Assembly: GCA_049800095.1 (NCBI GenBank)
Contig: JBARJD010000139.1
Location: forward strand, 1 to 49,094
DNA from: Thermoplasmata archaeon
Lineage (GTDB): Archaea; Thermoplasmatota; Thermoplasmata; Lutacidiplasmatales; UBA184
Reading direction: 5' to 3'
Length of the DNA: 49,094 nt
Shown here: one piece after another, positions 6,475-47,310 of the stretch
How the letters are laid out: the number at the start of each line of letters is the position of its first letter
Position numbering within the stretch: position 1 is the stretch's first letter
Position numbers and translations under genes: made by a program
Notes under the pieces: model-generated
The model's input: only the letters and a program-made list of their open reading frames with translations
Database searches by the model: none
What the model was told of the DNA's origin: nothing

Positions 6475-6520
6475 CGGATTTCCGACGAGGTTATCCCTCG
6501 CCGACCTTCGAGCGCAACCC

Positions 6521-10230: not shown

Positions 10231-11316
10231 TTAGCTGTCGACGGCGGTGGCCGACGTGGCGGCCGTGCGGTTCTTGAGATACTGCGTCAGGAACCCGGCG
10301 AAGACGAGCGCTGCGAGTCCTCCGGTGATCGCGCCCAGGGTGAGGGGAAGGCTCGAGCCCGGCTGCAGTAGCTCGATGTACTCGACGAGGTAGATGACGC
10401 CGTAGGCCACGAACCCGAGCGAGACGATCGAGAGAATGGCGATCGGGTAGGACCGGGGGATGTGTCCCTTCGCGACGTAGCGCCGAATCGCCCGTCCGGT
10501 CTCCCAGATGATGCCCCCCACGAGCCACCAGACCATCGCGGCGAGGAAGAACTGGAGCAGCCGGTCCAGATTGTTCGCGGCGGTGGGCAGGTAGGCGTTG
10601 TACCCCTCGAGGAAGCCCGCCCCGATGACGCCGATGCCAAAAAGTCCGAAGCCGAAGGCGATGGCGCCCTGACGGATATCCGCCGAAGCGGAGGTGATGG
10701 AGTCGATGATCGCCTCGTCGATGTCAAAGGTCCAGAAGATGAGATAGACTCCGATCAGCAGCAGGAGCCCGATGAAGCCCCAGACCAATTGGCCGGCCGC
10801 TGCCGCCAATCCCAGCACGATGAGGACCAGAGCGAAGGGCAGGACCGTCTTGGCGCGTAGCTTCGGGTCCTTCAGTGCCCGGACGAGGGTGTAGTAGGTC
10901 GATTCGAGGCCGGGCGCTTGACGCACCACCACCCGGCGGACCCCATCGATACGGACCCGCGACGCGAGGATCGGCAGAAGATACTCGTCTTCGGCGCCGT
11001 CGGAAACGAAGTACGCCGCTTCGGCGGGATGCTCCTTGAGCACTTGATCGAGTTGTTCGGCAATCAGCCGGTCGGAGACAACCCCCACCTTCGCGGACCC
11101 AGTCAGGGCGACGACCTGGACCTCGTCATCCTCTTCCCGAAGCTCGTCGTACAATCGAAGCCCCCCGAAGAGGGCGTTCGTGTCGGTGTCTTCGGGGTCC
11201 GCTGTACCGAGCTTCGACGCCGCATCGAGGACGGCCGAGCGGCCGATGATAGGGCCGTGGATGCCGGTCTTGCGACCGATATCATCGTCCCGGTCGACGC
11301 AGACGATGAGCCGCAT
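10231..11316 (-). CDS. Archaeal integral membrane protein, DUF373-like
   Basis: The N-terminal soluble domain starts MRLIVCVDRDDDIGRKTG..PIIGR and is followed by about 7 TM helices. This matches my recollection of the DUF373 family. Confidence 0.65.
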   Translation of the reverse strand: MRLIVCVDRDDDIGRKTGIHGPIIGRSAVLDAASKLGTADPEDTDTNALFGGLRLYDELREEDDEVQVVALTGSAKVGVVSDRLIAEQLDQVLKEHPAEAAYFVSDGAEDEYLLPILASRVRIDGVRRVVVRQAPGLESTYYTLVRALKDPKLRAKTVLPFALVLIVLGLAAAAGQLVWGFIGLLLLIGVYLIFWTFDIDEAIIDSITSASADIRQGAIAFGFGLFGIGVIGAGFLEGYNAYLPTAANNLDRLLQFFLAAMVWWLVGGIIWETGRAIRRYVAKGHIPRSYPIAILSIVSLGFVAYGVIYLVEYIELLQPGSSLPLTLGAITGGLAALVFAGFLTQYLKNRTAATSATAVDS

Positions 11317-15741: not shown

Positions 15742-16539
15742 GTGACCGCGAGCGAGGCGCCCGACGTCCCTGGGATCGTCGGGGAGCATCAGGCCCCCGA
15801 CGGCTCTCCGCTCCCCGACCGCACCTCGCCAACGTTCGAACGGGAGGTCCAGGCGATGTTCACCCACATCGTACGTCGGTACGACTGGTTCGATCATGCG
15901 GCGTCGATGGGCAACGACTACCTCTGGCGCCCGGTGGCCCTGTGGGACCTGTCCCGATTCCGGGCCCAGCAGCCATCGGTGCAACGCATCCTCGACGTCG
16001 GATGCGGTACCGGTGACCTTACCCGACTCGCGGCCCGGTTCTTCCGCTCCGCCCGGGTCGTGGGAGCGGACTTCACCCCGGCGATGCTGCGCATTGCCGA
16101 CGGGAGGACCCGACCCGAGTCGACGGCGCCGCGTGTGGGATACCTGCGCGCCAACGCCCGGAGATTGCCGGTGCCCTCGGGGTCGTTCGACGTGATCATG
16201 TCGGCCTTTGTGGCGCGGAATCTGGTGGACCTTCCCCGCGTTTTCCGTGAGTTCCGGAGAGTGCTTCGACCCCACGGCACCGTTCTGACCCTCGAGATTA
16301 CGGAGCCCGCTTCGCCCCTGATCGGCCGCCTCTTCCACGCGTATTTCGACCACGTCGTCCCATGGCTCGGCGCCGCCGTGCACAGCGCCGGCCCGTACCG
16401 GTACCTCCCCAACTCTCTCCGGACGCTGCCTCCGCGGGCGGAAATGATCCGCCTCATGCAGGACGCCGGGTTTCCCCGGGTCGAGGCGCATCCCCAATCG
16501 ATGGGGATAGTGACGAGCTATCTCGCAGGCGCCGAGTGA
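15742..16539 (+). CDS. ubiE: Demethylmenaquinone/ubiquinone methyltransferase (UbiE/MenG family)
   Basis: F..I..RYDWFDHAASMGNDYLWR, the SAM motif ILDVGCGTGD and the LRPHG..L.LE pattern. The start is inferred at in-frame GTG 15742, just after the preceding stop. ATG 15856 would truncate the conserved N-terminus. Confidence 0.75.
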   Translation: MTASEAPDVPGIVGEHQAPDGSPLPDRTSPTFEREVQAMFTHIVRRYDWFDHAASMGNDYLWRPVALWDLSRFRAQQPSVQRILDVGCGTGDLTRLAARFFRSARVVGADFTPAMLRIADGRTRPESTAPRVGYLRANARRLPVPSGSFDVIMSAFVARNLVDLPRVFREFRRVLRPHGTVLTLEITEPASPLIGRLFHAYFDHVVPWLGAAVHSAGPYRYLPNSLRTLPPRAEMIRLMQDAGFPRVEAHPQSMGIVTSYLAGAE

Positions 16540-20955: not shown

Positions 20956-22773
20956 ATGGTAGACCCCTGGGTCCTGACCAACGATGTCATCGGCAACGTT
21001 GGGGGGTTGGTCCTTACCCCTCTGCTCTGGATTGGACTCTTTGCGTGGGCCTGGAGCCGGCCGGCCGATGCGCGGGCGAGCGGCTTCGGCCGAATGGCCT
21101 TCTGGTTGCTGCTCCCGGGCGCCCTCCTGAGTTCGTTGGCCGATGTCCCCTTCCTCCCGTGGGCCGGGGACGTGCTGGCCATCAACCTCGGCGGGGCGCT
21201 CATTCCGATTGCCCTGACCCTCGTACTCCTCCGCCGCGAACTGGGGACCCCCGGTTGGAGACTCGCCGGCATCGTCCTGCTGATCGTCGCGGCGGAGACC
21301 GCGACTCAATTCGCGATCGTGCTCGTTTCGACTTCGTTCCTTTCGGGACTCCTCGTGCTGGCCGCCGCCGGTGGTACGGTGGCGAGTGCCGCCGTGGCCC
21401 TGCCCCTTTGGACGACACGCCCTGCGGCCATGCGAGCGGTGACGTTCGTCGCGCTCGTTTCGGTTGCGATTTCGTTCACCTTCTTCAGTTCGCAAGCGAT
21501 CCCCGGCGTGGGGATCGTGTCGACGTTTCCGTTCTACCTGGTGGGTCCCATCGTGGTGGGCCTCGCCGCCGCGTGGGTAGCTACGGCGGTATGGGGCGTC
21601 GCGGCCTACCGTGGCCTCGGGATTGGATACGGCACCGGTACGCTGGGCACACTGATCGGGGCGGATGTCCTTCGCCAGCCACCGCTCTACACCGGGGCCG
21701 GCGGCGAGTTACTTGCCATCGGGGGAGCCGGCGTCCAGGACCTGGTCTACTTCTCGGGGCTGCTGGCCCTCGGAACGGGTCTACTGTTCGTCTTGATCCG
21801 CTCCCGCGGAGCTCCCTCGGACTCTTCCGCCTCCGCGCCGCTCTCGCCGGAGCTCTCGCTGCGGGCGGCCGCAGAACGTTTGGCGAAGGGCGATCCCGCG
21901 GGAGCCATCCGAGATTCGGTCATCGCCAGCCAAGGCGCCACCGATCGAGTGCGGTCGATCTTCCAGTTGCCCTCGCCGGTGCAACCGGCCGCCGCTTGGG
22001 AGGGTCTCCCGGTCGCGCCCTATGTGGCGAACGACTACCGAAATTTCATCGCGTGCAAAGACGAGCCGGCCCCTACTCCACGGGAAGCAATCCGGAACCT
22101 CGCGATGGCGACCCAGTTCGTCCGTCTCGGACGAGATTTGACCCGTATTCGCTTCGCCGCCCCCGGCCGCAGGGGTTGGGCCGCCGTAGTGGACCTGGCC
22201 GTCGTGACCGCTCCCGCGCTGGTCCTGTGGAGCGTCCTCGCGTGGACGCAGCCCGGCGGACTCTACGGGATCCTCGACGGGCTCCCGTTCAATCTCGCGG
22301 TCTTCGGCTACGTCGGATACGCGGTCCTCTACTACGTCGTCTGCGACGCGCTGTTCGGCGTCACCATCGGAAAGTCCCTCTTCCATCTGACCGTGACCGA
22401 CCGAACGTATGCCCGGCCCACGCTGCTGCAATCCTTCGTCCGGGAAGCCCCCAAGGCGGTCCCCATTTTCGTGATCGGGGAATTCGGAGCGCCGGCGCTG
22501 TTGTTCCTCCTCCTGGCCAGCAGCTCGTCCCTGAGTGCGTTCGGAACCAATCTCACCTTTCTTACTGGGGCCGTGCTGGTCGGAATCGTGCTCGTGACCG
22601 TCATCGCGTCGCTCGCTATCGGGGGCGTGCAGGTGTCCCGCGATTCCGAACGACAGCGCCTGGGAGACCGATGGGCCTCTACGTGGGTCGTGGACCGACG
22701 GGCGGTCACTCCGGCATGGGGAGCGACACGGACGACGTCGGCCGTTCCGCCGGGACCGGCCCCACCAGGCTGA
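20956..22773 (+). CDS. Polytopic membrane protein: DUF1614-like N-terminal half fused to an RDD-like C-terminal domain
   Basis: The N-terminal multi-TM region contains INLGGALIP, a DUF1614-like motif from memory. The C-terminal region RRGWAAVVDLAVV...YYVVCDALFGVTIGKSLFHL resembles RDD-family domains. The 3' end overlaps albA by 68 nt in convergent orientation. Confidence 0.5.
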   Translation: MVDPWVLTNDVIGNVGGLVLTPLLWIGLFAWAWSRPADARASGFGRMAFWLLLPGALLSSLADVPFLPWAGDVLAINLGGALIPIALTLVLLRRELGTPGWRLAGIVLLIVAAETATQFAIVLVSTSFLSGLLVLAAAGGTVASAAVALPLWTTRPAAMRAVTFVALVSVAISFTFFSSQAIPGVGIVSTFPFYLVGPIVVGLAAAWVATAVWGVAAYRGLGIGYGTGTLGTLIGADVLRQPPLYTGAGGELLAIGGAGVQDLVYFSGLLALGTGLLFVLIRSRGAPSDSSASAPLSPELSLRAAAERLAKGDPAGAIRDSVIASQGATDRVRSIFQLPSPVQPAAAWEGLPVAPYVANDYRNFIACKDEPAPTPREAIRNLAMATQFVRLGRDLTRIRFAAPGRRGWAAVVDLAVVTAPALVLWSVLAWTQPGGLYGILDGLPFNLAVFGYVGYAVLYYVVCDALFGVTIGKSLFHLTVTDRTYARPTLLQSFVREAPKAVPIFVIGEFGAPALLFLLLASSSSLSAFGTNLTFLTGAVLVGIVLVTVIASLAIGGVQVSRDSERQRLGDRWASTWVVDRRAVTPAWGATRTTSAVPPGPAPPG

Positions 22774-23203: not shown

Positions 23204-23288
23204 GCAGGGGTGGCCCAGCTTGGTCAAAGGCGCCAGGTTGAGGTCCTGGTCTCGTAGGAGTTCGTGAGTTCAAATCTCACCCCCTGCA
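23204..23288 (+). tRNA. tRNA-Leu(GAG), class II with long variable arm, no encoded CCA
   Basis: Acceptor GCAGGGG/CCCCTGC. D-arm GCCC-AGCTTGGTCAA-AGGC. Anticodon stem CCAGG/CCTGG with loop TT-GAG-GT. 14-nt variable arm. T-arm GTGAG-TTCAAAT-CTCAC. Discriminator A. Confidence 0.9.
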
Positions 23289-29838: not shown

Positions 29839-29847
29839 TTATAAATA
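29839..29847 (+). promoter_or_regulatory. Strong TATA box (TTATAAATA) upstream of the Ehr-like operon
   Basis: This is the best TATA match in the window and lies 117 nt before ATG 29956. A GGAG Shine-Dalgarno at 29943-29946 sits 9 nt before the ATG. Confidence 0.5.
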
Positions 29848-29955
29848 GACGGGGCACTAACGAACTGCTGGCGGAGGCGTCCGCCTGCCGGGAGTCCCCC
29901 GGTAAACTGCCCTCAGGGCCAATGACGCCTGCTTCCCCGAAAGGAGTAGGCGAGC

Positions 29956-30915
29956 ATGACCCTCGAAACACAGGCCGTAAACGGTCTACAGCTTGCCACA
30001 GTACTACTTCTGTCCCCGTTGATTGCCGGGATCGCCGCTCGCGGCAAGGCGTGGACGGAATCTCGTAGAGGCCCCTCAATCCTCCAACCCTACTTCGACC
30101 TGGCCAAGTACCTTCGAAAGGAGACGCTCGTCCCGACCGGCGCCTCGCGCATCTTCATCGTCGCGCCCTTCGTATCGTTTGGAGCCTACTTCCTGATCTC
30201 GATCGTCATACCGATACTCACCCCGTACCCGCTCCCCTTCGCCCCGACCGTCGACTTCCTGGGTGGAGGGCTACTCTTCGGTTTGGCGGGCGTCGTGACC
30301 CTCCTCGCTGCCCTGGATTCTGGAAGTAACTACAGTGCCCTTGGGGCGAGTCGGACGGTGTCGTTCGCCGCCCTCGCGGAACCGACTCTGATCGTCGTAT
30401 TCTTCGCCGTGGCCGTGATCAGCGGTACCAATAGTCCCTACGTCGCGAACAACGTCGTGAGCGCCTCGCTAGTGGCCTACCTCTCACCGACCCATCTTCT
30501 CGCGACGGCGGCCTTCTTCCTTCTGCTGCTCTTCGAGACCGGAAAATTGCCGGTCGAGAGCGCCGGCCTCATGGAGTTCGGCATGCTCGAGGAGGGCCGC
30601 ATCTACGAGCACTCGGGCCGGCTACTCGGACTGTTCCGCTGGAACGGGTGGATGAAACAGTTCCTGCTCTACGCGTTGTTCCTCAACGTGTTTGCTGTCC
30701 CCTGGGGAATGGTGGCGGCCCCGACGCTCGTCGGAGCGGTCTACAACCTTGGGCTCCTCCTCGGGAAGCTTCTCGTTCTCGTAGGGGTCCTCGTGCTCGT
30801 CGAGGCCACCCTCGCTAAGGTCCGCCTGTTCAAGATCCGGGATTTCCTTGCCCTGTCCTTCGCGTTCGCAGTGTTGTCCGTCTTTCTGTTCGCCGTCCTG
30901 GGGGGGGTGCCTTAG
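29956..30915 (+). CDS. Ehr/Hyf-like complex membrane subunit, NuoH/HyfC/HycD family
   Basis: SRRGPSILQPYFDLAKYLRKE, LDSGSNYSALGASR and LPVE....EF.MLEEGRIYEHSG align with HyfC/NuoH signatures. The 319 aa compare with 315 aa in E. coli HyfC. Confidence 0.8.
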   Translation: MTLETQAVNGLQLATVLLLSPLIAGIAARGKAWTESRRGPSILQPYFDLAKYLRKETLVPTGASRIFIVAPFVSFGAYFLISIVIPILTPYPLPFAPTVDFLGGGLLFGLAGVVTLLAALDSGSNYSALGASRTVSFAALAEPTLIVVFFAVAVISGTNSPYVANNVVSASLVAYLSPTHLLATAAFFLLLLFETGKLPVESAGLMEFGMLEEGRIYEHSGRLLGLFRWNGWMKQFLLYALFLNVFAVPWGMVAAPTLVGAVYNLGLLLGKLLVLVGVLVLVEATLAKVRLFKIRDFLALSFAFAVLSVFLFAVLGGVP

Positions 30916-31563
30916 ATGGACCCCACCACCGAGGTCGTCCCATTGCTCGGCGTGGGCATCTTGCTCACGGCGCTCTATCTCCAGTCGGAATCGTTCGTCG
31001 ACCCGCTTGTCTGGGGAGTGGCACTGCAATCCGGGTTGATTGCCCTGCTCCTGGGGTGGCTTGCCTGGGCCGATCATAACGTCGACTTCGCCATCCTCGC
31101 CGTGTTGGCCGTCGGGATCCGGGTCTTCCTAATTCCCTACGTGCTGCGCCGGCAGATCCGCGCCTTCCGTTGGCGGGCGAGAGAGCTGCGCGCTTCGCAG
31201 CGTGTTACCGGCCACGTATTGGCCGCGGTGGCGTTAGCCATCATCGCTTGGTTCGTGTTCCAACAGACCCTCGCGCCGGCGTTCCCCGAGCTCGGAGGAG
31301 CCCTGCCCTTCGTTCTCCTGATCCAGGGGCTCCTGATGCTCGCAACACGGGCGAACACGATCGTGCAGGTGGTCGGCTATCTTGAGGAGGAGAACGCCAT
31401 CGTGTTCGCCGGCGCCCTCTTCGCTCGCGGCTTCCCGCTCTTCATCGAGGTCGTGATCTTCCTAGATGTCCTGGGCGTGGTCCTTGTCGGTGTGATTCTT
31501 TCGATCCAGCGGGACGTGACCGGTACCCCCGAGGAGAAGGTGCTGGAGGAGCTCACCGGATGA
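30916..31563 (+). CDS. Ehr/Hyf-like complex membrane subunit, HyfE family
   Basis: 215 aa, against 216 aa for HyfE. The C-terminal half IVQVVGYLEEENAIVFAGAL...FIEVVIFLDVLGVV matches the HyfE pattern GY.L.EN...L.L......IG...D. Confidence 0.7.
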   Translation: MDPTTEVVPLLGVGILLTALYLQSESFVDPLVWGVALQSGLIALLLGWLAWADHNVDFAILAVLAVGIRVFLIPYVLRRQIRAFRWRARELRASQRVTGHVLAAVALAIIAWFVFQQTLAPAFPELGGALPFVLLIQGLLMLATRANTIVQVVGYLEEENAIVFAGALFARGFPLFIEVVIFLDVLGVVLVGVILSIQRDVTGTPEEKVLEELTG

Positions 31564-32996
31564 TATTCACCGACCCTCGAGTGTGGATCTTCTTCGTCCT
31601 GGCCTCTCCCATGGCCGGGGCAATCCTCGCCCTGGTTCCATATCGCTCCGTGAGCCAGGCCGCGGCCCGCACTGCGTCGGTGGCGACCTTCGTCGCCGCC
31701 ACGGCACTCCTCGTGTTGGAGGCGCGAGGGGAGTGGGGGCCGGTCTTCGGCGTAGACCCGCTGAGCGACGTGTTCCTGTTTACCGTCGCGGCGATCTATG
31801 CCACGTCGGTGTGGTACTCGAGCGGCTATCTCCGATCGGTCAACAGCGCATACCTCTCGCCCCAGATCTACTACGCGTTGATGAGCGCTTTCGCCGTCGC
31901 GATGCTGTTCAGCCTACTGGTTACCGACCTCGGCCTGATGTGGATCGGAATCGAAGCGACGACGGTCGCGAGCGCGTTGCTCATCGTGCTCGAACGGAAA
32001 CCGGCGAGCGTCGAAGCCGCCTGGCGGTACACGCTCATCGCTTCGGCGGGGTTGACGATCGCCCTCTTCGCGCTGCTTCTCCTCTACGAGGCGACCGGCA
32101 CCCTGGACGCCGTCGCCCTCGCGGCGAACCACCCCGTCGCGACCCTCCTGGTACAGATGGCCGTCGCTCTCGCACTCGTAGGGTACGGCACCAAGATCGG
32201 TCTCTTTCCGATGCATACGTGGTTGCCGGACGCGCACTCGGAGGCGCCCTCTCCCGTATCCGCTCTTTTTTCGGGGGTGCTGCTTCCCACGGCGCTGTAC
32301 GCGTTCCTACGCGTCTACCAGGTGCTCCCGAGTCCGGCCCCCGCGGACCTCTCGAATCTCGTCCTCGTGGTTGGTCTGTTGACCGCCCTCGTGGCCGCCT
32401 TCCTGCTTCAGCGACAACGGTCGTTCAAACGACTCCTCGCCTATTCGAGCATGGAGGTCATGGGCCTCGCCATTGTCGGAGTGGCGCTCGGCGGGTACGC
32501 CTTGTACGGGGCCCTCGTTCTCTTGGTGGCGCACGCCTTCGCCAAGTCGGCGGCGTTCTATTGCGCGGGGAACGTGCTGCGGGGGACCGGTACGACACGG
32601 ATCGACTCCGTGCGGGATCTTCGGTCGCGGATGCCCTGGACGAGCGCCGCCTGGGTCCTCGCCGCGCCCGCGGCGACCGGTGCCCCCCCGTTCGGGACCT
32701 TTGTCGGGGAACTTCTCATCGTAGTCGGTGCAGTGGCGGTCGGCGCCGATTGGGTCGCCATCGTTGTCGTCGTGGCAATACTGGTGGCCTTCCTCGGCGT
32801 CAACGCGCAGATTGGCGGCATGGTGTTCGGGAAAGGGGATCGGGCCCCGGGCCCCATCACGCCCGGAGCTGAATCCGGCGTATCGTTCGCGTTCCTCAAC
32901 GTCGCCATGGCACTCGCCATCGGGGTCGTCAGCCTGCCCTATCTCTCCACCGCCATCCGAGCGGCCGCGCTTCTCCTGGGAGGGAGAATACCATGA
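31560..32996 (+). CDS. Ehr/Hyf-like complex antiporter-like subunit (HyfD/HyfF, NuoM/N family)
   Basis: 478 aa and about 14 TM helices. HTWLPDAHSEAPSPVSALFSGVLL is the hallmark of Mrp/NuoLMN-type proton-conducting subunits. Joined to hyfE-like by an ATGA overlap. Confidence 0.8.
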   Translation: MIFTDPRVWIFFVLASPMAGAILALVPYRSVSQAAARTASVATFVAATALLVLEARGEWGPVFGVDPLSDVFLFTVAAIYATSVWYSSGYLRSVNSAYLSPQIYYALMSAFAVAMLFSLLVTDLGLMWIGIEATTVASALLIVLERKPASVEAAWRYTLIASAGLTIALFALLLLYEATGTLDAVALAANHPVATLLVQMAVALALVGYGTKIGLFPMHTWLPDAHSEAPSPVSALFSGVLLPTALYAFLRVYQVLPSPAPADLSNLVLVVGLLTALVAAFLLQRQRSFKRLLAYSSMEVMGLAIVGVALGGYALYGALVLLVAHAFAKSAAFYCAGNVLRGTGTTRIDSVRDLRSRMPWTSAAWVLAAPAATGAPPFGTFVGELLIVVGAVAVGADWVAIVVVVAILVAFLGVNAQIGGMVFGKGDRAPGPITPGAESGVSFAFLNVAMALAIGVVSLPYLSTAIRAAALLLGGRIP

Positions 32997-34309
32997 CGGC
33001 GCTCGCCGCCGTGGGGACTACCGGGGAAAGCGGTGCGGGAATCCGCCTCCCGGCATACGCCGCCCCGGACGGCTCGTTCGTTCTCTGGAATGACTTGACG
33101 ACCGGGCGCTCTCGCCTCGTGGGATCGGCCTCGGAGCCGTTCCCTCCCGACTTGACGGCGGCTTGGGCGGTCCCGCGGGACGGCCCGAGACGCCGCTCCG
33201 TGGCTCCGGCCGAGGAGGTGGATGGGTACGGAGTGTTCACCTTCCCGTACGGCCCCATCACGATGGGGGTCGCGGAGTCGGGTCGGTTCGACGTTCGTAC
33301 TTACGGTGAACGCATCCTAGACGTAGCTCCGGTCGCCGGGTACAAGTCTCGACGCATCCTTCCCTCCTTGATCGGCCTATCGGTGGAAGATGCGGCGCTC
33401 CGCGTGGAGCGCGTGTCGGGCAACTTTTCAGCCGCGCACACCGCGGCGTTCCTCGCGGCGGCCGAAAGTGCGATCGCTCGTCCCATTGACGTAGAAGAAG
33501 CCTGGGTTCGGGCCGTCGCCCAGGAACTGCAACGGATCTACAACCACGTGCATGTGATCGCTCGGGTCGCCGAGGCCGCTTCTCAGAACGTCGGCCTCGC
33601 CCAGGCCCACGCCTTCGCGGAGGAGGTCCTGCGGCAGATCGGAGCGACCTTCGGCCATCGATGGCTCTTCGGAGCGTTCCTCCCCGGCGGACCCCGCGCG
33701 CATCTCGACACGGACGATCGCGCGCGTCTTGCCCGAACTCTCGACCGGAAGTCCATGGAGTTCGAGCAGCTTTGGACCTTGTTCCAGGATTCTCGGACGT
33801 TCGTTGACCGGATTCAGACGACGTGTCCCGTATCTCGCGACCAAGCCGTTCACTGGGGCGGCGTGGGTCCCACCCTCCGCGCCACCGGGGTACCGTGGGA
33901 CGACCGACTCCGGGCGCCGGTCGTGCCCTACACGGACCTCTTCCTCCCGCTCGCGACGGAGTCCGAAGGCGATGCGCTCGCCCGCGTGCTCGTCCGTGCC
34001 CAGGAAGTCCGGAGCAGCTACCTCCTGCTGGAGCAGCTCCTCGAGCGTTGGCCAAAATCCCCCGTCGATCCCGTTCCGCCGGCCGCGACCGTCGGCCCGA
34101 ATCGGGGTCTCGGTCGGGTCGAGGGTCCCAGTGGGGACATCGTCTACGACGTCTCGGTCGTAGCGGGTCGCGTCACGGCCGTCGGTCTCCGTAGCGCGAG
34201 TGACGCCAATTGGCCCCTGTTCGCTATCGGGATGCGGGACCAGGTCTTCACGGATTTCCACTTCGCGTGGGAGAGCTTCGGCCTCCAATTCGCCGAAACG
34301 GATCGGTGA
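32993..34309 (+). CDS. NiFe-hydrogenase large subunit / NuoD homologue lacking all metal-ligating cysteines
   Basis: It aligns to HycE/NuoD: GP.T.G..E.G.F...Y.GE.IL, GYKSR, ERVSGNFSAAH and a C-terminal FAETDR. The four NiFe cysteine positions are Ser, Phe, Gln and Glu. ATGA overlap upstream and GTGA overlap downstream. Confidence 0.8.
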   Translation: MTALAAVGTTGESGAGIRLPAYAAPDGSFVLWNDLTTGRSRLVGSASEPFPPDLTAAWAVPRDGPRRRSVAPAEEVDGYGVFTFPYGPITMGVAESGRFDVRTYGERILDVAPVAGYKSRRILPSLIGLSVEDAALRVERVSGNFSAAHTAAFLAAAESAIARPIDVEEAWVRAVAQELQRIYNHVHVIARVAEAASQNVGLAQAHAFAEEVLRQIGATFGHRWLFGAFLPGGPRAHLDTDDRARLARTLDRKSMEFEQLWTLFQDSRTFVDRIQTTCPVSRDQAVHWGGVGPTLRATGVPWDDRLRAPVVPYTDLFLPLATESEGDALARVLVRAQEVRSSYLLLEQLLERWPKSPVDPVPPAATVGPNRGLGRVEGPSGDIVYDVSVVAGRVTAVGLRSASDANWPLFAIGMRDQVFTDFHFAWESFGLQFAETDR

Positions 34310-35061
34310 AGCACGTGCCGAGCTGGTTGGAACAGTCATGGAAACGGGGCATTCTGACCACCCGTTATCCTCGAATCGCCGCTCAGCCTGGCGAGATTCC
34401 TGACACTGCCTTGCCGCCGATCCCGAACGGCCCCGCGGTCGCACTGGCGACGTCGACTTCCAGCTGCCCGACCGGCGCGATTACGCGCAACGCCGTCGAT
34501 CAAGGAAAGTGTATCCGGTGCGCCCGCTGCCGCGCGCAGGGCTTCGCTTTCGCCGGCCCGCTGGAATCCAGCGTCGCCCGACGCCCGGATCTAGTCTGGC
34601 TCGAAGGAACACCCCATCCGACGGAGGAGGCCGGTTCGCTGGTCGCGCTCGGGCGCTCCGTGCACGTGTTCCTCGTCGACGTCGGGAGTTGCAATGCGTG
34701 TAATCTAGAGGTCCTCGCACTGGCGAACCCGTACTACGATTCGCAACGACTCGGCATCTTCTTCACCAACTCTCCACGCCATGCGGACGTCCTGCTGGTC
34801 GTCGGGGTTCCTACCGCGGAGATGGTGGAGCCGATGCAGCGCGCCTACGCCGCCTTGCCCTCTCCCAAGGCGGTGGTGGCCGTAGGGGTCTGCCCCACGA
34901 GCGGGGGGATCTTCGCGGGGAACCCCGGTCTTCGTTCGTCCCTCGACGAGCTCGTGCCGGTCGACCGGTACGTGCCCGGCTGTCCACCGCACCCCTTGGC
35001 CGTGCTCGATGCCATTCTAACGCTGATGGGACGACATCGGCCGTCCGCAGGAGGTCGCTGA
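34306..35061 (+). CDS. NuoB/HycG-type small subunit fused to an N-terminal single-cluster ferredoxin-like remnant
   Basis: The NuoB/HycG core is DVGSCNACNLE, SPRHADVLLVVG, GVCPTSGG and VPGCPPHP. About 100 aa precede it, containing CPTGAI and CIRCARC. The start is inferred at GTG 34306, overlapping the upstream stop. Confidence 0.75.
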   Translation: MKHVPSWLEQSWKRGILTTRYPRIAAQPGEIPDTALPPIPNGPAVALATSTSSCPTGAITRNAVDQGKCIRCARCRAQGFAFAGPLESSVARRPDLVWLEGTPHPTEEAGSLVALGRSVHVFLVDVGSCNACNLEVLALANPYYDSQRLGIFFTNSPRHADVLLVVGVPTAEMVEPMQRAYAALPSPKAVVAVGVCPTSGGIFAGNPGLRSSLDELVPVDRYVPGCPPHPLAVLDAILTLMGRHRPSAGGR

Positions 35062-35062
35062 G

Positions 35063-37066
35063 ATGGACCCCTTCGGCCTCGTACTCACGTTCGCGATCGC
35101 GTCGTTCTTCGCCGGAGCCGCGCTCGCGTTCCTGGGCCGGCGTGTGGCGTATGCGGCCACGATCGTGGGCGCGACGGGCCTGGTCGTGGTTGCGGTCCGC
35201 GTGATCCTGCTCGGGCCGGTACAGGGTCCGATGTGGACCGGCCCGCTCGGCGAAATGGAATCGTTCGGCCTCGACGGCCTGTCGGCATTCTTCGCGCTGG
35301 CCGCGGGACTCGTCTGGATTTCGACATCGGTCTACTCCCTCTACTACGACGACGGTCCGTCGCCGCTGCTCGCCCTCACCTACGCGGTAACGCTCGGATC
35401 GATCGCCGTGCTGGTGTCGGCGTCGAGCTTCCTACTCTTCCTGATGGGGTGGGAATCGATGACGCTGGCCTCCTTCGGAATGATACTCCAAGCGTCGGGG
35501 AAATCTCCTCGGATCTTCTCGGCCGCGTTCGTCTTCCTTGCCTTCGGCGAGGCGAGCACTCTCTTCGTATTCCTGGCCGTGGCCGGGTACCGGGTTGCGG
35601 CCGGTACCTTCACGATCATGCCCGTCGCAATGGCCGCCCCGCTCGCCACCCTTGTGTTCGTCGTGGGCCTCATCGGGTTCGGTCTCAAGATGGGCGTGGC
35701 CCCGTTCCACATGAGCGAATGGCTTCCGATCGCTCACTCATCGGCGCCTTCGAATGCATCCGCGGTGCTGAGCTCCACGCTGACGTTGGCCGGAGCCTAC
35801 GGCCTCTTCCGCCTCTTGAGCATCCTACCGACGCCGCCGGTCTGGTGGGGGGCGGTCACGCTCTCGATCGGTGCCGTCTCGGCCCTGCTCGGAGCCCTCT
35901 TCGCCTCGGTGAGCGAGCACACGAAAGGGCTCCCGGCGTACAGCACCATCGAAAACAACGGACTCATCCTGGTCGCGGTGGGCGTCGCGCTGGTGGCCCG
36001 GTCCGAGGGACTGATGACCCTCTACGTCTTCGCGCTGTTCGCGGCCTTCTATCAGGCCCTCGCGCATGCGGTGGCCAAGACCGCGCTGTTCCTCAGCGCG
36101 GGATACGTCGAACACTCGACGCACACCTTCGACCTGAACGTGGTCCAGGGACGCGCGAAGAACGCCGCTCGAGGCGCCGTGGCCGGAGCCCTCATCGCCC
36201 CGCTCAGCCTCGCGGCGGCGCCCCCCCTGGCGGGCTTTGTGAGCGAGTGGATGATCCTCGAGGCGCTCTTCCAGTCGTTCCGGTTCACTCCCCCCGCCAT
36301 GCAGTTCGTCGGCTTGCTCGCCGGTGCTGCCGTCGCGCTGGCGGCGGGCCTTGTCCTCGTGGCGATGGTGAAGTACATCGGATTCTCGACCCTGTGGCAG
36401 CCCTCCCGGCCCGGCGCGGCCGACCGACCCGCCGGATTGGGTACCGTCCTCGCGGCGATGGCCGTCGCCATCGCCGGACTGGGAGTCGGCGCGCCGTGGG
36501 TGCTCCGGTTCCTCACTCCCTCGGTGTCGGCGTTCGCCCATGTCGCCGTCACCGCTCCCGTGTCCGGGCTCCTCTCCATCCCGTTCGGCTGGTCGATCGT
36601 CTCGGGCTCGCCGTTCGGGATCCTGTCCCCACCGGCCGTTCCAATCTTCATTGGGGGGGGACTCCTCGTCGCGCTGGGGTACTACGCGCTCGGGGTCCGG
36701 ACACCGGTGCGTCGGATTGCGTCCTGGATGGCCGGGAGTCCGCCCGGCCGAGTTGAGGAGACGTACACGTCGTTCGGTTACAGCACAGGAGTCCGGATCA
36801 TGTTCCGGTCGATCCTGCGCACGCGGGAAGTGCGGGCCCACTCCGGTACATTCACTCGTGCGGCGATGGAGACGCCGGTCGCGTACAACGTCGAACTCGA
36901 GGTACTCGACCCGTTCAAGATCTTTTACGACGAACTGGTCCGGTTCGGAATGGGAGTCTCCACCGCTCTCAAGGAGGGAGTCATGCCGGGTCGCGTGGGG
37001 CGGTATCTCGCGTATCTCCTGGTCGCGACACTCGTCGTCGTCATCTACGTCGCGATCGCGGTCTGA
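35063..37066 (+). CDS. Ehr/Hyf-like complex antiporter-like subunit (HyfB/NuoL family)
   Basis: 667 aa, against 672 aa for HyfB. It is polytopic, contains PFHMSEWLPIAHSSAPSNASAVLS, and has a C-terminal extension typical of the L-type subunit. Confidence 0.8.
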   Translation: MDPFGLVLTFAIASFFAGAALAFLGRRVAYAATIVGATGLVVVAVRVILLGPVQGPMWTGPLGEMESFGLDGLSAFFALAAGLVWISTSVYSLYYDDGPSPLLALTYAVTLGSIAVLVSASSFLLFLMGWESMTLASFGMILQASGKSPRIFSAAFVFLAFGEASTLFVFLAVAGYRVAAGTFTIMPVAMAAPLATLVFVVGLIGFGLKMGVAPFHMSEWLPIAHSSAPSNASAVLSSTLTLAGAYGLFRLLSILPTPPVWWGAVTLSIGAVSALLGALFASVSEHTKGLPAYSTIENNGLILVAVGVALVARSEGLMTLYVFALFAAFYQALAHAVAKTALFLSAGYVEHSTHTFDLNVVQGRAKNAARGAVAGALIAPLSLAAAPPLAGFVSEWMILEALFQSFRFTPPAMQFVGLLAGAAVALAAGLVLVAMVKYIGFSTLWQPSRPGAADRPAGLGTVLAAMAVAIAGLGVGAPWVLRFLTPSVSAFAHVAVTAPVSGLLSIPFGWSIVSGSPFGILSPPAVPIFIGGGLLVALGYYALGVRTPVRRIASWMAGSPPGRVEETYTSFGYSTGVRIMFRSILRTREVRAHSGTFTRAAMETPVAYNVELEVLDPFKIFYDELVRFGMGVSTALKEGVMPGRVGRYLAYLLVATLVVVIYVAIAV

Positions 37067-37103: not shown

Positions 37104-37568
37104 TCAGGGGACGACCGTCACCGGCCGCCCGGACCGGTCGAGGAGGGCGGCGGAGACGGAGCCGAGGAGGGTCCTGGCCGCGCCCCGGAGTCCCCGGGTG
37201 CCGACCACAATCCAGTCCGCCTTGATCTCGTCCGCGGCCGCGAGCAGCACCGTGATAGGAGACCCCCCTCGGCTCCACGCGGTGAGGGTGACCCCCTCCC
37301 GCGTCGCTTCTTCTTGCAGGTCACGGAGGACCTCACCGATCGCGTCCACCTCGGAGGCCTGCTCCTCATCGGTACGGGGTTCCATCACCAACGCAGGAGG
37401 CTGGGCGGCGTGCACCAGCCAGATCGCGGCGCCCCCCCGACGGGCGATTCCGAGAGCGAACTGCACCGCTCGGTACGACGCGTCCGATCCGTCGTATCCC
37501 ACGAGCATCCGGAGGGCCGGTGGGGGCCTCGAATTGGCATGGATCGGAGTGCGCGAGGGGGTGTTCAT
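37104..37568 (-). CDS. Universal stress protein (UspA family)
   Basis: The sequence runs MLVGYDGSDASYRAV.FA...A......L.HA, with the C-terminal ATP-binding pattern VVGTRGLRGAARTLLGSVS. Confidence 0.8.
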   Translation of the reverse strand: MNTPSRTPIHANSRPPPALRMLVGYDGSDASYRAVQFALGIARRGGAAIWLVHAAQPPALVMEPRTDEEQASEVDAIGEVLRDLQEEATREGVTLTAWSRGGSPITVLLAAADEIKADWIVVGTRGLRGAARTLLGSVSAALLDRSGRPVTVVP

Positions 37569-38047
37569 GGCCGACCCTCGTTGGGACGTCGCGGAAGGTA
37601 GCGATCTCCGGCGTTCTCAGTGTCCGCGTCCCCACGGGGAGGGTCCCCGTGCCCGGAGGCCCGTATCATCCCTTCGAGGGCCCGGACCCGCCGAGAAAGC
37701 AACGCGTTGTCCGCGTAGTACTCGTAAGCTTGGAAATTCAGGCGCGCCCGATCCTGAGCGCAAGCAGTGAGGGACTTCGCCAGCTGCTCGAGTCGGCTCC
37801 CCGTCGATACCCCGAGGCCGGCCTCCGGGCTGGAGGCTACGCGCGGGGGTGGGGGAGGAAGGAGCGGGAGCATCGTGAGAAGCCAAACCCACAGCCCCCT
37901 CAATCCCACTTCGTCCAGGTCGAGCCAAGGTCGAATGGCGGCGCGAAGCTCCGGCGGGGGTTCGACGTAGTCGTTCCGGATCCGTTCTGCGCCGCCCGGA
38001 CGTCGGCGGTCGCTCTTCTGGGTGGCCGCTTCCAATTCCCTGGGCAT
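37565..38047 (-). CDS. Hypothetical protein (one hydrophobic segment, proline run, helical C-terminus)
   Basis: 160 aa. Its stop overlaps the usp start (ATGA on the minus strand). No family was recognised. Confidence 0.35.
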   Translation of the reverse strand: MPRELEAATQKSDRRRPGGAERIRNDYVEPPPELRAAIRPWLDLDEVGLRGLWVWLLTMLPLLPPPPPRVASSPEAGLGVSTGSRLEQLAKSLTACAQDRARLNFQAYEYYADNALLSRRVRALEGMIRASGHGDPPRGDADTENAGDRYLPRRPNEGRP

Positions 38048-45021: not shown

Positions 45022-45429
45022 ATGTGGGGACGAAAGAAGAGGGGCCTTCGGAACTGGGTGGTCATGATTCTGCGACGGCAGGCGCGGAATGGCGCCGAGA
45101 TCATCGATGACATGGAGGTCATGACCCACGGATGGTGGCGCCCCTCTCCCGGCTCCGTCTATCCGCTCCTGGAAGAGATGGTGAGCGACGGCACGCTGCG
45201 GAAGCGCCCCGACAGTCGCTACGAATTGGTCAGCCCCCCGGACTTCGAGCAATGGGGACACGGGTGGAGAATGGCCGGGGGTCCCCGGACCCCCCTGGAG
45301 ATTGTGCAGGAGATCTCGGGACTTACCGCGTACCTTGAAGACCTCCGACGCTCGCAGCCCAGCGCCACCCAACCGATCCAATCCGAGCTCGACGCGGTGG
45401 CCGAACGACTTCGAAAACTGAGGAACTAG
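45022..45429 (+). CDS. PadR family transcriptional regulator
   Basis: ILRRQARNGAEIIDDME......W.PSPGSVYPLLEEMVSDG.L is the PadR winged-helix signature. It lies directly upstream of an ABC exporter pair. Confidence 0.8.
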   Translation: MWGRKKRGLRNWVVMILRRQARNGAEIIDDMEVMTHGWWRPSPGSVYPLLEEMVSDGTLRKRPDSRYELVSPPDFEQWGHGWRMAGGPRTPLEIVQEISGLTAYLEDLRRSQPSATQPIQSELDAVAERLRKLRN

Positions 45430-45439
45430 GAGAACATCC

Positions 45440-46459
45440 ATGCTACCAACGCAAGCGATCAACGCCGAGAATCTGGTCAAGGTCTACAACGGCACCGTGA
45501 AGGCGGTGGATGGGGTCTCCTTCCAGGTCACTCGCGGGGAGATCTTCGGATTTCTGGGACCCAACGGGGCGGGAAAGACCACGACGGTCTCGATGCTGTC
45601 GGCCGGTCTTCGCCCGACCGCGGGGAGTGCGGTCATTGACGGCCTCGAAGTCGGCTGGGACCCGGAAGCGGTCAAGCGGCGCATTGGAGTGATCTTCCAG
45701 GAATCCACGGCCGATGGCGACCTGACCGGCCGTGAGAACATCGAAGTGGCGGCCGGGTGCTACGGCATAGCGGCCTCCGAGGGCCGCAAGCGAACCCAAG
45801 CGCTGCTCGAGCAGATGCAGATCACGGAAGCGGCCGACCGGTTGGCGAAAACGTACTCGGGCGGGATGCGACGGCGGCTGGAGTTGGCCGTCGGTCTCGT
45901 CCACAATCCAAAAATCTTGTTCCTCGACGAGCCGACGCTGGGCCTCGACCCGCAGGGTCGGAACGGGTTCTGGGGCTTCATTCAGAAACTCCGGAAGGAG
46001 CAAGGCCTCACGGTGTTCGTCACGACACACTACCTGGACGAGGCCGACACGATGTGCGACCGGCTCGCGATCATCGACCACGGCAAGATCGTCGCCACGG
46101 GTACGCCCACCGAGCTCAAGGACCGGCTCGGCGGAGACATCGTGACGGTCAAGACCGCGGTCGGCGCACCGGATGTGACGGCCCTGATCACCTCGTTACG
46201 CGGGGTCACGGGCGTGCAGAAGCAGGACGGCACGTACCGGGTCAAGGTTGCGAGCGGCGAGTCCTTCGTGCCCTTGGCGGTGGAGGCCTGCGATAAGGCG
46301 GGCGCCGGCGTGACCGGGGTCACGGTCAAGCGACCCAGTCTCGACGAGGTGTTCCTGGAGTTCACCGGACGTGAATTCCGAGAGGAGGAGGGTCCGAGCG
46401 CGACGGACCGCGCGATCATGGTCCAGCGGGTTCAGAACCGGATCGGAGGGCGGCGCTAA
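45440..46459 (+). CDS. ABC transporter ATP-binding protein (DrrA-like)
   Basis: Walker A GPNGAGKTT, signature YSGGMRRR, Walker B ILFLDEPTLGLD, and an extra C-terminal domain of about 90 aa. Confidence 0.9.
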   Translation: MLPTQAINAENLVKVYNGTVKAVDGVSFQVTRGEIFGFLGPNGAGKTTTVSMLSAGLRPTAGSAVIDGLEVGWDPEAVKRRIGVIFQESTADGDLTGRENIEVAAGCYGIAASEGRKRTQALLEQMQITEAADRLAKTYSGGMRRRLELAVGLVHNPKILFLDEPTLGLDPQGRNGFWGFIQKLRKEQGLTVFVTTHYLDEADTMCDRLAIIDHGKIVATGTPTELKDRLGGDIVTVKTAVGAPDVTALITSLRGVTGVQKQDGTYRVKVASGESFVPLAVEACDKAGAGVTGVTVKRPSLDEVFLEFTGREFREEEGPSATDRAIMVQRVQNRIGGRR

Positions 46460-47310
46460 TGCTGCGCGAACTGGCCGCGCTGACCCGCCGGGAGTTCCTC
46501 AAGCTGGCCCGGAATCCCCAGGCGATCTTCACGGCCCTGCTGCTGCCGCTGCTGTACCTGCTCCTGTTCGGTCAAGGGTTCAACATCAACCCGACGGAGT
46601 TCCTCCCGCCGGGGACCCCCCCGTCGGTGATCAAGGGCATTCTGGCCGCGTACTTCCGCGGGGCGCCGAATTATTACTCGTACTTCGCCGCCGGGATGGT
46701 CGGCTTCGTGGCCGTCACCGCGACCCTGTTCAGCGGCGCGAACGTGATCTTCGACAAGCTGTTCGGCATCTTCAAGCGGGTCCGGGGGACCCCCGCACCC
46801 TCCGCGGCCGTCTTCGGGTCCCGGCTGATCGCCGCGTCGACGCAGCCGATCCTGTTGGCGTTCTTCGTCCTCGGCCTGGCGCTGCTGTTCAAGCACGTCC
46901 CGGGCCTCACCGGGATGACGGTCACCGCGTCGGTCGGGATTGTCGGCGGCCTCGAGATCATCGTCGCGATCGTCCTGCTCTCGCTGATGTTCGCGACGCT
47001 CTTCCTCACGTTCGGGATTCTCATCGAGAACCCGCAGATGTACTTCGCCGCGGTGAACCTGCTTAACTTGCCGGTCCTGCTGACGTCGGATGCGCTGTAC
47101 CCGTGGGGAGCGATGCCCCACTGGCTGCAGAGCGTGTCGCAGTACAATCCCGTCTCCCTGGCCGTGAACGTGCTTCGAGAGACGCTCTTCGGGTCCTCGG
47201 TGTATCCGTACGCGCCGGGGATCTACCTCCTGGGGCTATTCGGCTGGGCGGCCGTACTCGGTACCATTGCGCTGCTGCTCGTCCGACGGGCGTTGCGCCC
47301 TCTCAACTAA
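46459..47310 (+). CDS. ABC-2 type transporter permease
   Basis: 283 aa with 6 predicted TM helices. Its start overlaps the ATPase stop (TAATG). Confidence 0.75.
   Translation: MLRELAALTRREFLKLARNPQAIFTALLLPLLYLLLFGQGFNINPTEFLPPGTPPSVIKGILAAYFRGAPNYYSYFAAGMVGFVAVTATLFSGANVIFDKLFGIFKRVRGTPAPSAAVFGSRLIAASTQPILLAFFVLGLALLFKHVPGLTGMTVTASVGIVGGLEIIVAIVLLSLMFATLFLTFGILIENPQMYFAAVNLLNLPVLLTSDALYPWGAMPHWLQSVSQYNPVSLAVNVLRETLFGSSVYPYAPGIYLLGLFGWAAVLGTIALLLVRRALRPLN

Follow-up and report, generated by a model that had tools for sequence, protein, structure and literature searches.

The stretch analyzed here, referred to below as the window, is a whole contig of 49,094 bp (GC content, 66%) deposited under the source name "MAG: Thermoplasmata archaeon" (MAG, metagenome-assembled genome). 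Its plus strand carries a six-gene cassette at positions 29956 to 37066, in which the genes follow the order H-E-F-D-B-L (i.e., HyfC-, HyfE-, HyfF-, HyfG-, HyfI-, and HyfB-like subunits). This cassette very probably encodes a complex of the Ehr (energy-converting hydrogenase-related) type that is not a hydrogenase. Its genes, with the two domains of subunit B given separately, are as follows.

29956 to 30915, + strand: subunit H, HyfC/HycD/NuoH-like membrane anchor, 319 aa (PF00146, 5e-32)
30916 to 31563, + strand: subunit E, HyfE-like membrane subunit, 215 aa (NCBIfam NF008556, 5e-10, below the curated cut-off)
31560 to 32996, + strand: subunit F, HyfF-like, antiporter-like subunit, 478 aa (PF00361, 4e-59; NCBIfam HyfF, 1e-115, below the cut-off)
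32993 to 34309, + strand: subunit D, HycE/HyfG/NuoD-like large subunit, 438 aa (PF00346, 1e-26)
34306 to 34641, + strand: N-terminal domain of subunit B (251 aa in all), truncated and HyfH/NuoI-like, with one four-Cys set (C54-P, C69xxC72xxC75)
34642 to 35061, + strand: C-terminal domain of subunit B, NuoB/MbhJ/HycG-like (PF01058, 2e-26)
35063 to 37066, + strand: subunit L, HyfB/HycC-like, antiporter-like subunit, 667 aa (PF00361, 7e-31; NCBIfam HyfB, 2e-107, below the cut-off)

The third-position GC content of the six open reading frames (ORFs) is 0.78 to 0.85, which, in a contig of this composition, identifies them as real coding frames. As read from the sequence, H and E abut (TAG followed directly by ATG, 30915/30916), E/F and F/D overlap in ATGA (31560-31563 and 32993-32996), D/B overlap in GTGA (34306-34309), and B and L are separated by 1 nt (35061/35063). 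An earlier note on this DNA had described six co-directional, start/stop-coupled ORFs, and its coordinates, lengths, and all five junctions were recovered here, with one alternative to be added. The NCBI record of the contig starts the B gene three codons later, with a GTG at 34315 (248 aa; P0301), and B orthologues are 244 to 253 aa long; the GTGA overlap at 34306 is therefore one of two possible starts, under both of which the coupling is tight.

The cassette proteins were assigned to the Pfam families PF00146, PF00361 (twice), PF00346, and PF01058 with E values of 1e-26 to 4e-59, and NCBIfam models matched the second, third, and sixth genes as HyfE, HyfF, and HyfB, respectively. All of the NCBIfam scores fell under the equivalog cut-off, indicating that these proteins are relatives rather than orthologues of HyfE, HyfF, and HyfB. 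The best partners in Escherichia coli K-12 were HyfC (30% identity), HyfE, HyfF (37%, 3e-66), HyfG (22.5%), HyfI (41%), and HyfB (32%), which are the Hyf identities given in the earlier note. Its remark that the subunit sizes track those of E. coli hydrogenase-4 holds for HyfB (672 aa), HyfC (315 aa), HyfE (216 aa), and HyfI (252 aa) and fits HyfF (526 aa) and HyfG (555 aa) more poorly.

Large and small subunits of the peripheral arm

By sequence, the closest Protein Data Bank (PDB) entry to subunit D was MbhL (2e-23), followed by NdhH and HycE (6e-20). An AlphaFold2 (AF2) model of D (predicted local distance difference test [pLDDT] score, 89; predicted template modeling score [pTM], 0.91) gave HycE (7z0s_E) as its best fold match, with a query TM-score (TMq) of 0.76, followed by 49-kDa subunits at a TMq of ~0.7. 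The protein contains only one Cys, which is not conserved. Its L1 motif reads ERVSGNFSAAH instead of the hydrogenase ERxCGxCxxxH, and its C terminus reads LQFAETDR instead of LCYSCxDR, so that the four NiFe ligand positions are occupied by S142, F145, Q432, and E435. The earlier note had stated that D cannot hold a NiFe center and had allowed that a rigorous alignment might bring the ligands back; an alignment including E. coli HyfG, MbhL, HycE, and six true NiFe representatives did not do so. The Cys ligands are likewise missing in more than 45 close homologues, and among 150 D representatives clustered at 50% identity, not one of the nearest ~50 has either CxxC motif, with true NiFe sequences first appearing at an E value of ~1e-41 and ~30% identity.

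The residues that bind quinone in complex I are not found in D either. In the beta1-beta2 loop, D retains the Glu typical of hydrogenases (E95), but the two His residues with which NuoCD binds quinone are missing (GPNHPSAHG aligns with GPITMGVAE), as is the Tyr of the DRxxY quinone motif (DRIEY of E. coli NuoCD aligns with ERVSG). One feature shared with NuoD is an acidic residue at the position of the last NiFe Cys (FAETDR in D, SDVDR in NuoD). Judged by these residues, D is not a hydrogenase, and it does not form a canonical quinone site. Across 45 sequences, more than 100 columns of D are invariant, including E139, R140, G143, H149, T420, D421, H423, F424, E427, and D437, and the former active-site region, with its invariant, family-specific T420-D421-x-H423-F424 (TDFHF), is among the best-conserved parts of the protein. 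This conservation points to a working site rather than to decay.

The N-terminal ~75 aa of D (residues 1 to 75; 32993-33220), which are confidently predicted to form a three-stranded beta-sheet (residues 18 to 44; pLDDT, ~90) and a helix, have no counterpart in NuoD and MbhL. Residues 1 to 95 gave no Pfam match even at an E value of 10 and no PF00329/NuoC signal, although the Foldseek search with the D model gave some long alignments to E. coli NuoCD (~509 columns). The region may be a vestige of NuoC or a clade-specific addition.

The C-terminal domain of subunit B matched MbhJ (6cfw_J; 4e-37, ~50% identity) and HycG (7e-32) in PDB. All of its proximal-cluster ligands are present with hydrogenase-type spacing (GSC129NAC132, GVC196P, and GC226PP), and C129, C132, C196, and C226 align with the ligands of MbhJ and HycG. 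The spacing is CxxC instead of the tandem CC motif of NuoB. The AF2 model of B (pLDDT, 84) folds like HycG, MbhJ, and PSST, with a root mean square deviation of ~1.5 Å over ~129 columns; the fold search with this model matched the NuoB domain only, and the N-terminal domain gave no structural match of its own.

The N-terminal extension had been called a ferredoxin remnant in the earlier note, a description that we do not retain. Its four Cys residues, like the four NuoB-type Cys residues of the C-terminal domain, are 100% conserved in 58 orthologues from Thermoplasmata and Nitrososphaerales (ammonia-oxidizing archaea [AOA]), and its match to Pfam Fer4 is sub-threshold (8e-4). A profile of the extension is collinear with E. 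coli HyfH from an N-terminal G..T..YP motif onward (1.5e-6 in a set of 19 proteins); compared with HyfH, motif 1 has lost Cys1 to Cys3 and motif 2 its CP. A 2x[4Fe-4S] ferredoxin without those Cys residues would have one cluster fewer but a full ligand set for the other. The extension is also homologous to a free-standing 109-aa gene located between D and B in a distant relative, L069 (1.7e-12), where D is NuoC fused (PF00329 present), B is NuoB only, and the mini-NuoI is separate. It lies at the N terminus of B, whereas the extension of HycG/HyfI is C-terminal. We thus regard the N-terminal ~110 residues as a predicted reduced and fused HyfH/NuoI domain, not a decayed remnant, which would carry a putative surface [4Fe-4S] cluster and is the likely site of electron entry. 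The peripheral arm would then consist of D and B with two putative [4Fe-4S] clusters.

The NuoB-like subunit of L069 (10884-11369 of that locus) itself departs from the family, reading VPGSPPPP where all others have GCPP and containing an extra Cys in ACGPACGGG. The fourth proximal-cluster ligand of this long-form, bacterial-type Ehr relative appears to be missing or relocated.

Membrane arm

Subunit H is the best-conserved subunit, with 69 to 89% identity in Thermoplasmata and 57 to 63% in AOA. In PDB, it matched HycD (7z0s_D, 4e-32) and then MbhM (2e-16), and no complex I NuoH matched at 1e-5. Four Glu residues (E142, E194, E201, and E207) are invariant; E142 and E194 align with Glu138 and Glu189 of HycD, and the acidic loop between transmembrane helices (TM) 5 and 6 is kept. 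Mutation of HycD E138 cuts in vivo H2 production by 98%, and mutation of E199, E201, and E203 together cuts it by 99% (PMC9474812).

Subunit E had no PDB sequence match even at an E value of 10. A profile of 49 orthologues matched E. coli HyfE end to end (residues 7 to 212, 8e-17), and the C-terminal half is weakly NuoK-like, with a collinear match (E value, 0.04) that places GYLEEEN on NuoK Glu36. Its invariant residues include E157, E159, E178, and D184.

The two antiporter-like subunits resemble different structural relatives. Subunit F matched MbsH (best), MrpD, ND4, MbhH, and NuoM, and subunit L, which carries a C-terminal extension (lateral helix and anchor region), matched HycC (7z0s_C, 2e-34) and then MbhH and MrpA. 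Invariant residues of F (47 sequences) comprise E132 in TM5, K212 in TM7, H219, K329 in TM11, and E384 in TM12; those of L (46 sequences) comprise E131 in TM5, K209 in TM7, H335 and K339 in TM11, and E395 in TM12. Both proteins depart from their relatives at TM8. An invariant Pro243 of F (32280-32290) stands in place of the TM8 Lys of MrpD, ND4, and MbsH, and an invariant Leu242 of L stands in place of Lys239 of HycC, which in turn has Leu208 at the position of the TM7 Lys of L. The replacements are invariant in both subunits, AOA sequences included. In addition, L contains an invariant E219 within a 2-residue insert of the TM7 motif (PFHMSEWLP, residues ~212 to 222; 35690-35730). The lack of the TM8 Lys together with the E219 insert appears, from the residues compared, to be unusual for the superfamily. 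With the TM5, TM7, TM11, TM12, and E-channel residues invariant, the coupling machinery looks functional, if apparently wired somewhat differently from that of the characterized homologues.

Class assignment, distribution, and neighborhood

We adopted the working definition of Ehr from PMC6349859, which describes complexes that are related to group 4 hydrogenases, lack the Ni/Fe ligands, and are suspected to couple redox chemistry to charge translocation. The cassette contains the defining set: D is homologous to the large subunit of group 4 [NiFe]-hydrogenases and to NuoD, both the L1 and L2 CxxC motifs are missing from it, and NuoB-like, NuoH-like, and Mrp/Nuo antiporter-like subunits are encoded in the same tightly coupled operon. 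The Ehr assignment proposed in the earlier note is thus supported by gene set and CxxC loss alike. As for the neighboring classes, B has the proximal [4Fe-4S] ligands of a group 4 [NiFe]-hydrogenase, but the four NiFe Cys ligands, a separate 2x[4Fe-4S] NuoI-like subunit, and a NuoC-like domain or subunit are missing. The core set of complex I (NuoA to NuoD and NuoH to NuoN) and the His/Tyr quinone-headgroup ligands of NuoD are not present either; there are six genes, with a HyfE-type subunit replacing NuoA, NuoJ, and NuoK, and the NCBIfam Nuo equivalogs score far under their cut-offs (113 versus 360 bits for NuoD and 59.5 versus 305 bits for NuoH). MrpA/D-like folds are present, but the Mrp genes MrpB, MrpE, MrpF, and MrpG are not, and a conserved Fe-S arm is.

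The Ehr class is already known. Gene clusters for a Cys-less "putative hydrogenase 4" had been described from acid-mine Thermoplasmatales in 2013 (PMC3750248), and those of ammonia oxidizers followed later, Ehr complexes having been noted in AOA (PMC10432482). Their function was called undetermined in 2019 (PMC6728331) and twice in 2023 (PMC10284858 and PMC10432482), and no Ehr structure or enzymology was found in the literature, in agreement with the earlier note's description of the class as biochemically uncharacterized. Two expression contexts have been described for relatives. In the methanotroph Methylocystis, oxic growth at pH 5 reportedly induced a "group 4f" complex with the L1 motif "AARVS," in which the L1 cysteines are therefore missing, by ~20-fold (log2 fold change, +4.2 to +4.5), and H2 was not detected (bioRxiv 10.1101/2025.08.29.672306), and the Ehr operon of Mycobacterium tuberculosis is under the hypoxia hub regulator Rv0081 (PMC6901956, PMC6728331).

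Like the cassette, the Ehr systems of M. tuberculosis (Rv0082-Rv0087), comammox Nitrospira, AOA, Margulisbacteria, and the acid mine drainage "plasmas" lack both CxxC motifs and have a NuoB-like small subunit (PMC6349859, PMC6728331, PMC10284858, PMC10432482, PMC3750248). They also share HyfC-, HyfE-, HyfF-, and HyfB-like membrane subunits and carry no maturation genes, none of which was found in the 49-kb contig of the cassette either, and three distant Ehr loci (L068, L069, and L070) have the same gene set and order. In M. tuberculosis, B and L presumably come first in the operon, so that this order would be permuted cyclically. Compared with other Ehr complexes, the cassette has a short D without NuoC fusion (438 aa versus ~470 to 570 aa) and a mini-NuoI fused to B instead of encoded by a separate 109-aa gene. 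Within the described class, it belongs to an archaeal subclade with a short D, no NuoC, and a fused NuoI.

Among characterized systems, E. coli Hyf (formate hydrogenlyase 2 [FHL-2]) and Hyc (FHL-1; PDB 7Z0S/7Z0T) share the six Hyf partners, with HycD, HycC, and HycG top or near the top in PDB and HycE the top fold match, as well as the E-channel Glu residues and the CxxC spacing of the small subunit. The cassette differs in lacking the NiFe ligands, HyfA/HycB, HyfD, HyfJ, FdhF, hyp genes, and the NuoC domain, and its version of HyfH/HycF is reduced to one cluster and fused to B. The MBH (6CFW) and MBS (6U8Y) complexes of Pyrococcus furiosus provide the best PDB matches of D and B (MbhL and MbhJ) and of F (MbsH); both use ferredoxin to drive ion translocation and contain a short Fe-S wire, and they represent the functional analogy that we favor. 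MBH has a NiFe center and makes H2, whereas the cassette lacks the NiFe ligands, and MBH and MBS have no HyfE-type subunit detectable by sequence. Each consists of 13 to 14 subunits, among which are a complete Mrp-type Na+/H+ module as well as distinct NuoC- and NuoI-like proteins (MbhK and MbhN). Complex I, NDH-1, and Fpo have Pfam families in common with the cassette, D and B resembling the 49-kDa and PSST folds, respectively, but these quinone or methanophenazine reductases have 11 to 14 subunits, whereas the cassette lacks NuoA, NuoC, NuoJ, and a separate NuoI or NuoK and has two antiporter-like subunits. Ferredoxin-fed NDH-1 and Fpo-like complexes are mechanistic precedents.

The 178 close relatives of D are all metagenomic, and the named ones are all Thermoplasmata. 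A survey using one genome per GTDB species recovered 63 loci, of which ~55 were from Thermoplasmata species (soil, peat, and mine sites; 49 to 72% identity) and several from Nitrososphaerales (40 to 44%). Between Thermoplasmata and AOA, D shows 40 to 44% identity, compared with 57 to 63% for H. Among 64 related loci, the H-E-F-D-B-L order was kept at every locus long enough to judge, on contigs of up to 799 kb, while the flanks varied; a 74% relative on a 325-kb contig (L001) has the same cassette with entirely different neighbors, and the order persists in more distant relatives, including "Candidatus Sysuiplasma" at 38%. A fixed order with variable flanks indicates that the cassette is self-contained, and we regard the complex as a minimal complex I/group 4 hydrogenase relative encoded by a self-contained operon of an uncultured, high-GC Thermoplasmata archaeon. 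The possibility raised in the earlier note that missing subunits lie next to the operon in the complete genome fails on the same evidence. In a rough neighbor-joining tree, which carries no support values and is good for gross grouping only, D grouped with short (373 to 448 aa), NuoC-less, Cys-less proteins (Thermoplasmata, AOA, and Sysuiplasma type); this group was sister to long (466 to 567 aa), NuoC-fused, Cys-less forms, and NiFe enzymes branched nearer the base.

The earlier note had listed parts missing from the operon and from the whole 49 kb. Pfam searches of 46 ORFs and reading of the gaps in the window revealed no formate dehydrogenase, HyfA, separate HyfH/NuoI, NuoC, NuoEFG/FpoF, or hyp/hycI gene, which bears out the list except for HyfH/NuoI, which is reduced and fused to B rather than wholly missing. 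No small ferredoxin ORF was found in the window, including the unscanned gaps, which were read, and no hyp/hycI gene recurred within ±6 kb of the cassette at related loci. Clustering of all flanking ORFs at these loci revealed no recurrent redox partner gene. In the window, the flanks are housekeeping: an aminoacyl-tRNA synthetase, purD, rpoL, tpt1, and a zinc-ribbon protein upstream and a NUDIX hydrolase, an aldehyde dehydrogenase, a GT2 glycosyltransferase, and a helicase downstream. Three further features border the cassette.

29841 to 29849, no strand assigned: TATA-like element TTATAAATA, an AT-rich 9-mer rare in this GC-rich contig
37104 to 37568, - strand: universal stress protein (Usp), 154 aa (PF00582, 3e-27), convergent with the operon and 38 nt from its stop
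37565 to 38047, - strand: conserved 160-aa protein, in start/stop overlap with the Usp gene

The TATA-like element is the only strongly AT-rich element of the divergent intergenic region upstream of the operon, ~107 nt before the operon ATG and ~25 nt from the start (29819) of the minus-strand zinc-ribbon gene. It may be a candidate archaeal promoter for the operon or for the zinc-ribbon gene, perhaps shared or bidirectional. A sigma-70 promoter and terminator scan gave counts at the level of shuffled sequence and carries no information for an archaeal host.

A Usp homologue lies directly downstream on the opposite strand at 25 of the ~37 related loci with >3 kb of downstream DNA. The 160-aa protein has no Pfam match even at an E value of 10, and its homologues occur downstream on the opposite strand at 29 related loci and anywhere in the flanks at 32. 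Both are also found at L001 (Usp downstream; 160-aa homologue at 14566-15048). The pair is located downstream of the cassette at about two-thirds of the related Thermoplasmata loci and was not seen at the three more distant loci L068, L069, and L070.

Elsewhere on the contig, archaeal markers (S24e, Rpb7/RpoE, RpoL, Alba, and TrmB) were identified. An 807-aa STAND-type AAA ATPase with C-terminal TPR repeats (13295-15718, + strand; AAA_16, TPR_12, and weak nSTAND/BrxC matches) lies directly upstream of ubiE and may be a signaling or defense NTPase. A tRNA-Leu (GAG) at 23204-23288 (+ strand) was the only RNA gene detected with ARAGORN and Rfam. Two ABC-2-type transporter pairs (ATPase and permease) are located at 6386-8214 and 45022-47310, the second preceded by PadR- and ArsR-type regulators; a DUF373 protein is encoded at 10231-11316, and a DUF1614/RDD membrane protein is encoded at 20956-22773.

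Proposed function and alternatives

On balance, we lean toward reading the complex as an oxidoreductase that takes electrons from ferredoxin, passes them over two clusters to a quinone-type acceptor, and translocates ions, and a similarly slight preference attaches to its being a redox-driven ion translocator at all. That the reaction runs specifically from ferredoxin to quinone is possible but doubtful. A low-potential soluble carrier, most likely ferredoxin reduced by 2-oxoacid:ferredoxin oxidoreductases, would dock on the exposed single-cluster domain of B, and electrons would cross the two clusters to the D/B/H pocket that once held NiFe. A membrane acceptor, most likely a menaquinone-type quinone, would be reduced there and would be bound by a residue set unlike that of complex I, for which the invariant E95, H149, and H423 of D are candidates. 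Charge changes at the pocket would then drive the translocation of H+ (or Na+) by way of the E-channel and both antiporter-like subunits. The Usp neighbor, the acid habitats, and the acid induction in Methylocystis together suggest that the complex may be deployed under acid or energy stress.

Coupling of redox chemistry to ion movement is suggested by the residues of H and L that map to HycD and HycC residues whose mutation cripples FHL (PMC9474812). As the earlier note had reported, ubiE (15742-16539; PF01209, 5e-43) and ubiD (48154 to the contig end; PF01977, 3e-79) are present on the contig, and we count both in support of a quinone-type acceptor. The host being archaeal, we take the prenylquinone to be of the menaquinone/thermoplasmaquinone type and not ubiquinone. 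The ferredoxin:quinone role raised in the earlier note is kept here as a proposal, to be set against the lack of canonical His/Tyr quinone ligands in D. Several points weigh against the ferredoxin-fed oxidoreductase. The literature contains no Ehr complex for which a donor or acceptor has been demonstrated. Without the complex I His and Tyr, a quinone site in D would be built differently, and without the TM8 Lys, an important residue in the proton transfer of complex I, the stoichiometry or mechanism of F and L may differ. No NuoC-like subunit is detectable, whereas NuoC is fused in HycE and in E. coli NuoCD. H is better conserved than D and B, which fits a function centered on the membrane arm as well, and the link to stress is circumstantial, being drawn by analogy with distant relatives.

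The leading rival is a transport-centered role, in which the membrane arm would work as a cation or proton transporter for pH or ion homeostasis in acidic soil in an Mrp-like manner and the Fe-S arm would be only a sensor, gate, or cap. We consider it unlikely, if worth weighing. The better conservation of the membrane subunits between Thermoplasmata and AOA (H versus D, as given above) and the loss of both the NiFe Cys and the quinone His/Tyr agree with it, as do the conserved Usp neighbor, the acid induction of the Cys-less Methylocystis relative, and the identity of the carriers, i.e., archaea of acid soil, peat, and mine drainage together with AOA (PMC3750248, PMC10432482). However, none of the eight Cys residues of B varies even between deeply diverged lineages, the former active-site region of D shows the high conservation that would be expected if electrons were passed to a site there, and the E-channel residues by which FHL links chemistry to transport are kept; moreover, the Mrp-specific MrpB, MrpE, MrpF, and MrpG are missing, and HyfE only is present. 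A variant of the ferredoxin-fed oxidoreductase, which we regard as improbable, is that the same complex runs in reverse, with the proton motive force, which is large in acidophiles, driving electrons from quinol to ferredoxin for biosynthesis. Ech and Rnf run in reverse in some organisms, reducing ferredoxin. The architecture would be identical, the complex I superfamily is reversible (a passage of PMC9474812 states this for FHL), and the cassette is carried by aerobic autotrophic ammonia oxidizers, which are not known to have an obvious route to reduced ferredoxin. Heterotrophic Thermoplasmata, on the other hand, would generally be expected to overproduce reduced ferredoxin, no ferredoxin-consuming enzyme occurs in the conserved neighborhood, and the sequence gives no hint of direction.

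Two further readings are effectively excluded by the loss of the NiFe Cys and by the affinity of the subunits to Hyf/Hyc/Mbh. A canonical complex I (Nuo/Fpo) with its other subunits encoded elsewhere in the genome would explain the common Pfam families, the NCBI name of B ("NADH:ubiquinone oxidoreductase"; P0301), and a 49-kb window that leaves the remainder of the genome outside view. It is nevertheless highly improbable, as every subunit is nearer to Hyf/Hyc/Mbh than to Nuo, the Nuo equivalogs are far under cut-off, HyfE stands instead of NuoA/J/K, the quinone His/Tyr residues are missing, and six fixed genes recur with variable flanks on contigs of up to 799 kb. Least probable of all is a functional [NiFe] hydrogenase or FHL, for which the JGI/NCBI names ("Ni,Fe-hydrogenase III large subunit" and "formate hydrogenlyase subunit 5"), the fold match of D to HycE, and a gene content like that of E. 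coli hyf might speak. The four NiFe Cys residues are missing here and in more than 45 close homologues, true NiFe sequences first appear at ~30% identity, and hyp/hycI, formate dehydrogenase, and HyfA are neither found in the 49 kb nor recurrent at the 64 loci.

Homologues of the cassette proteins are named variously, depending on the source, as "Ni,Fe-hydrogenase III large/small subunit," "formate hydrogenlyase subunit 5/7," "NADH:ubiquinone oxidoreductase," "NuoB," and "hypothetical protein." The functional names given to the cassette proteins in databases are not justified by sequence features and are misleading, and it would be an error to deduce H2 or formate metabolism from such names when the metabolism of soil Thermoplasmata is reconstructed. 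Ehr complexes are widespread (M. tuberculosis, comammox Nitrospira, AOA, acidophilic Thermoplasmata, and candidate phyla) and stand evolutionarily between hydrogenases and complex I. The present cassette is one of hundreds of equivalent loci and does not by itself make Ehr function more tractable; it does offer handles, namely, a strictly conserved two-cluster wire with a mutable entry domain, a conserved pocket devoid of both the NiFe and the quinone residue sets, an unusual membrane-residue pattern, and a stress-protein neighbor. As a speculation to which we give little weight, the archaeal short-form Ehr may be a redox-driven ion pump smaller than any other in the complex I superfamily, with a two-protein, two-cluster arm that has only half of NuoI and lacks NuoC, a new non-metal pocket (E95/H149/H423 and TDFHF), and a proton path without the TM8 Lys. 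Acid or energy stress would switch it on, and it would then expel protons and reoxidize ferredoxin in aerobic archaea of acid soil, ammonia oxidizers among them. If the redox pump reading is true, two soil archaeal groups that are abundant worldwide would have, in this cassette, a hitherto unrecognized way of feeding ferredoxin into respiration.

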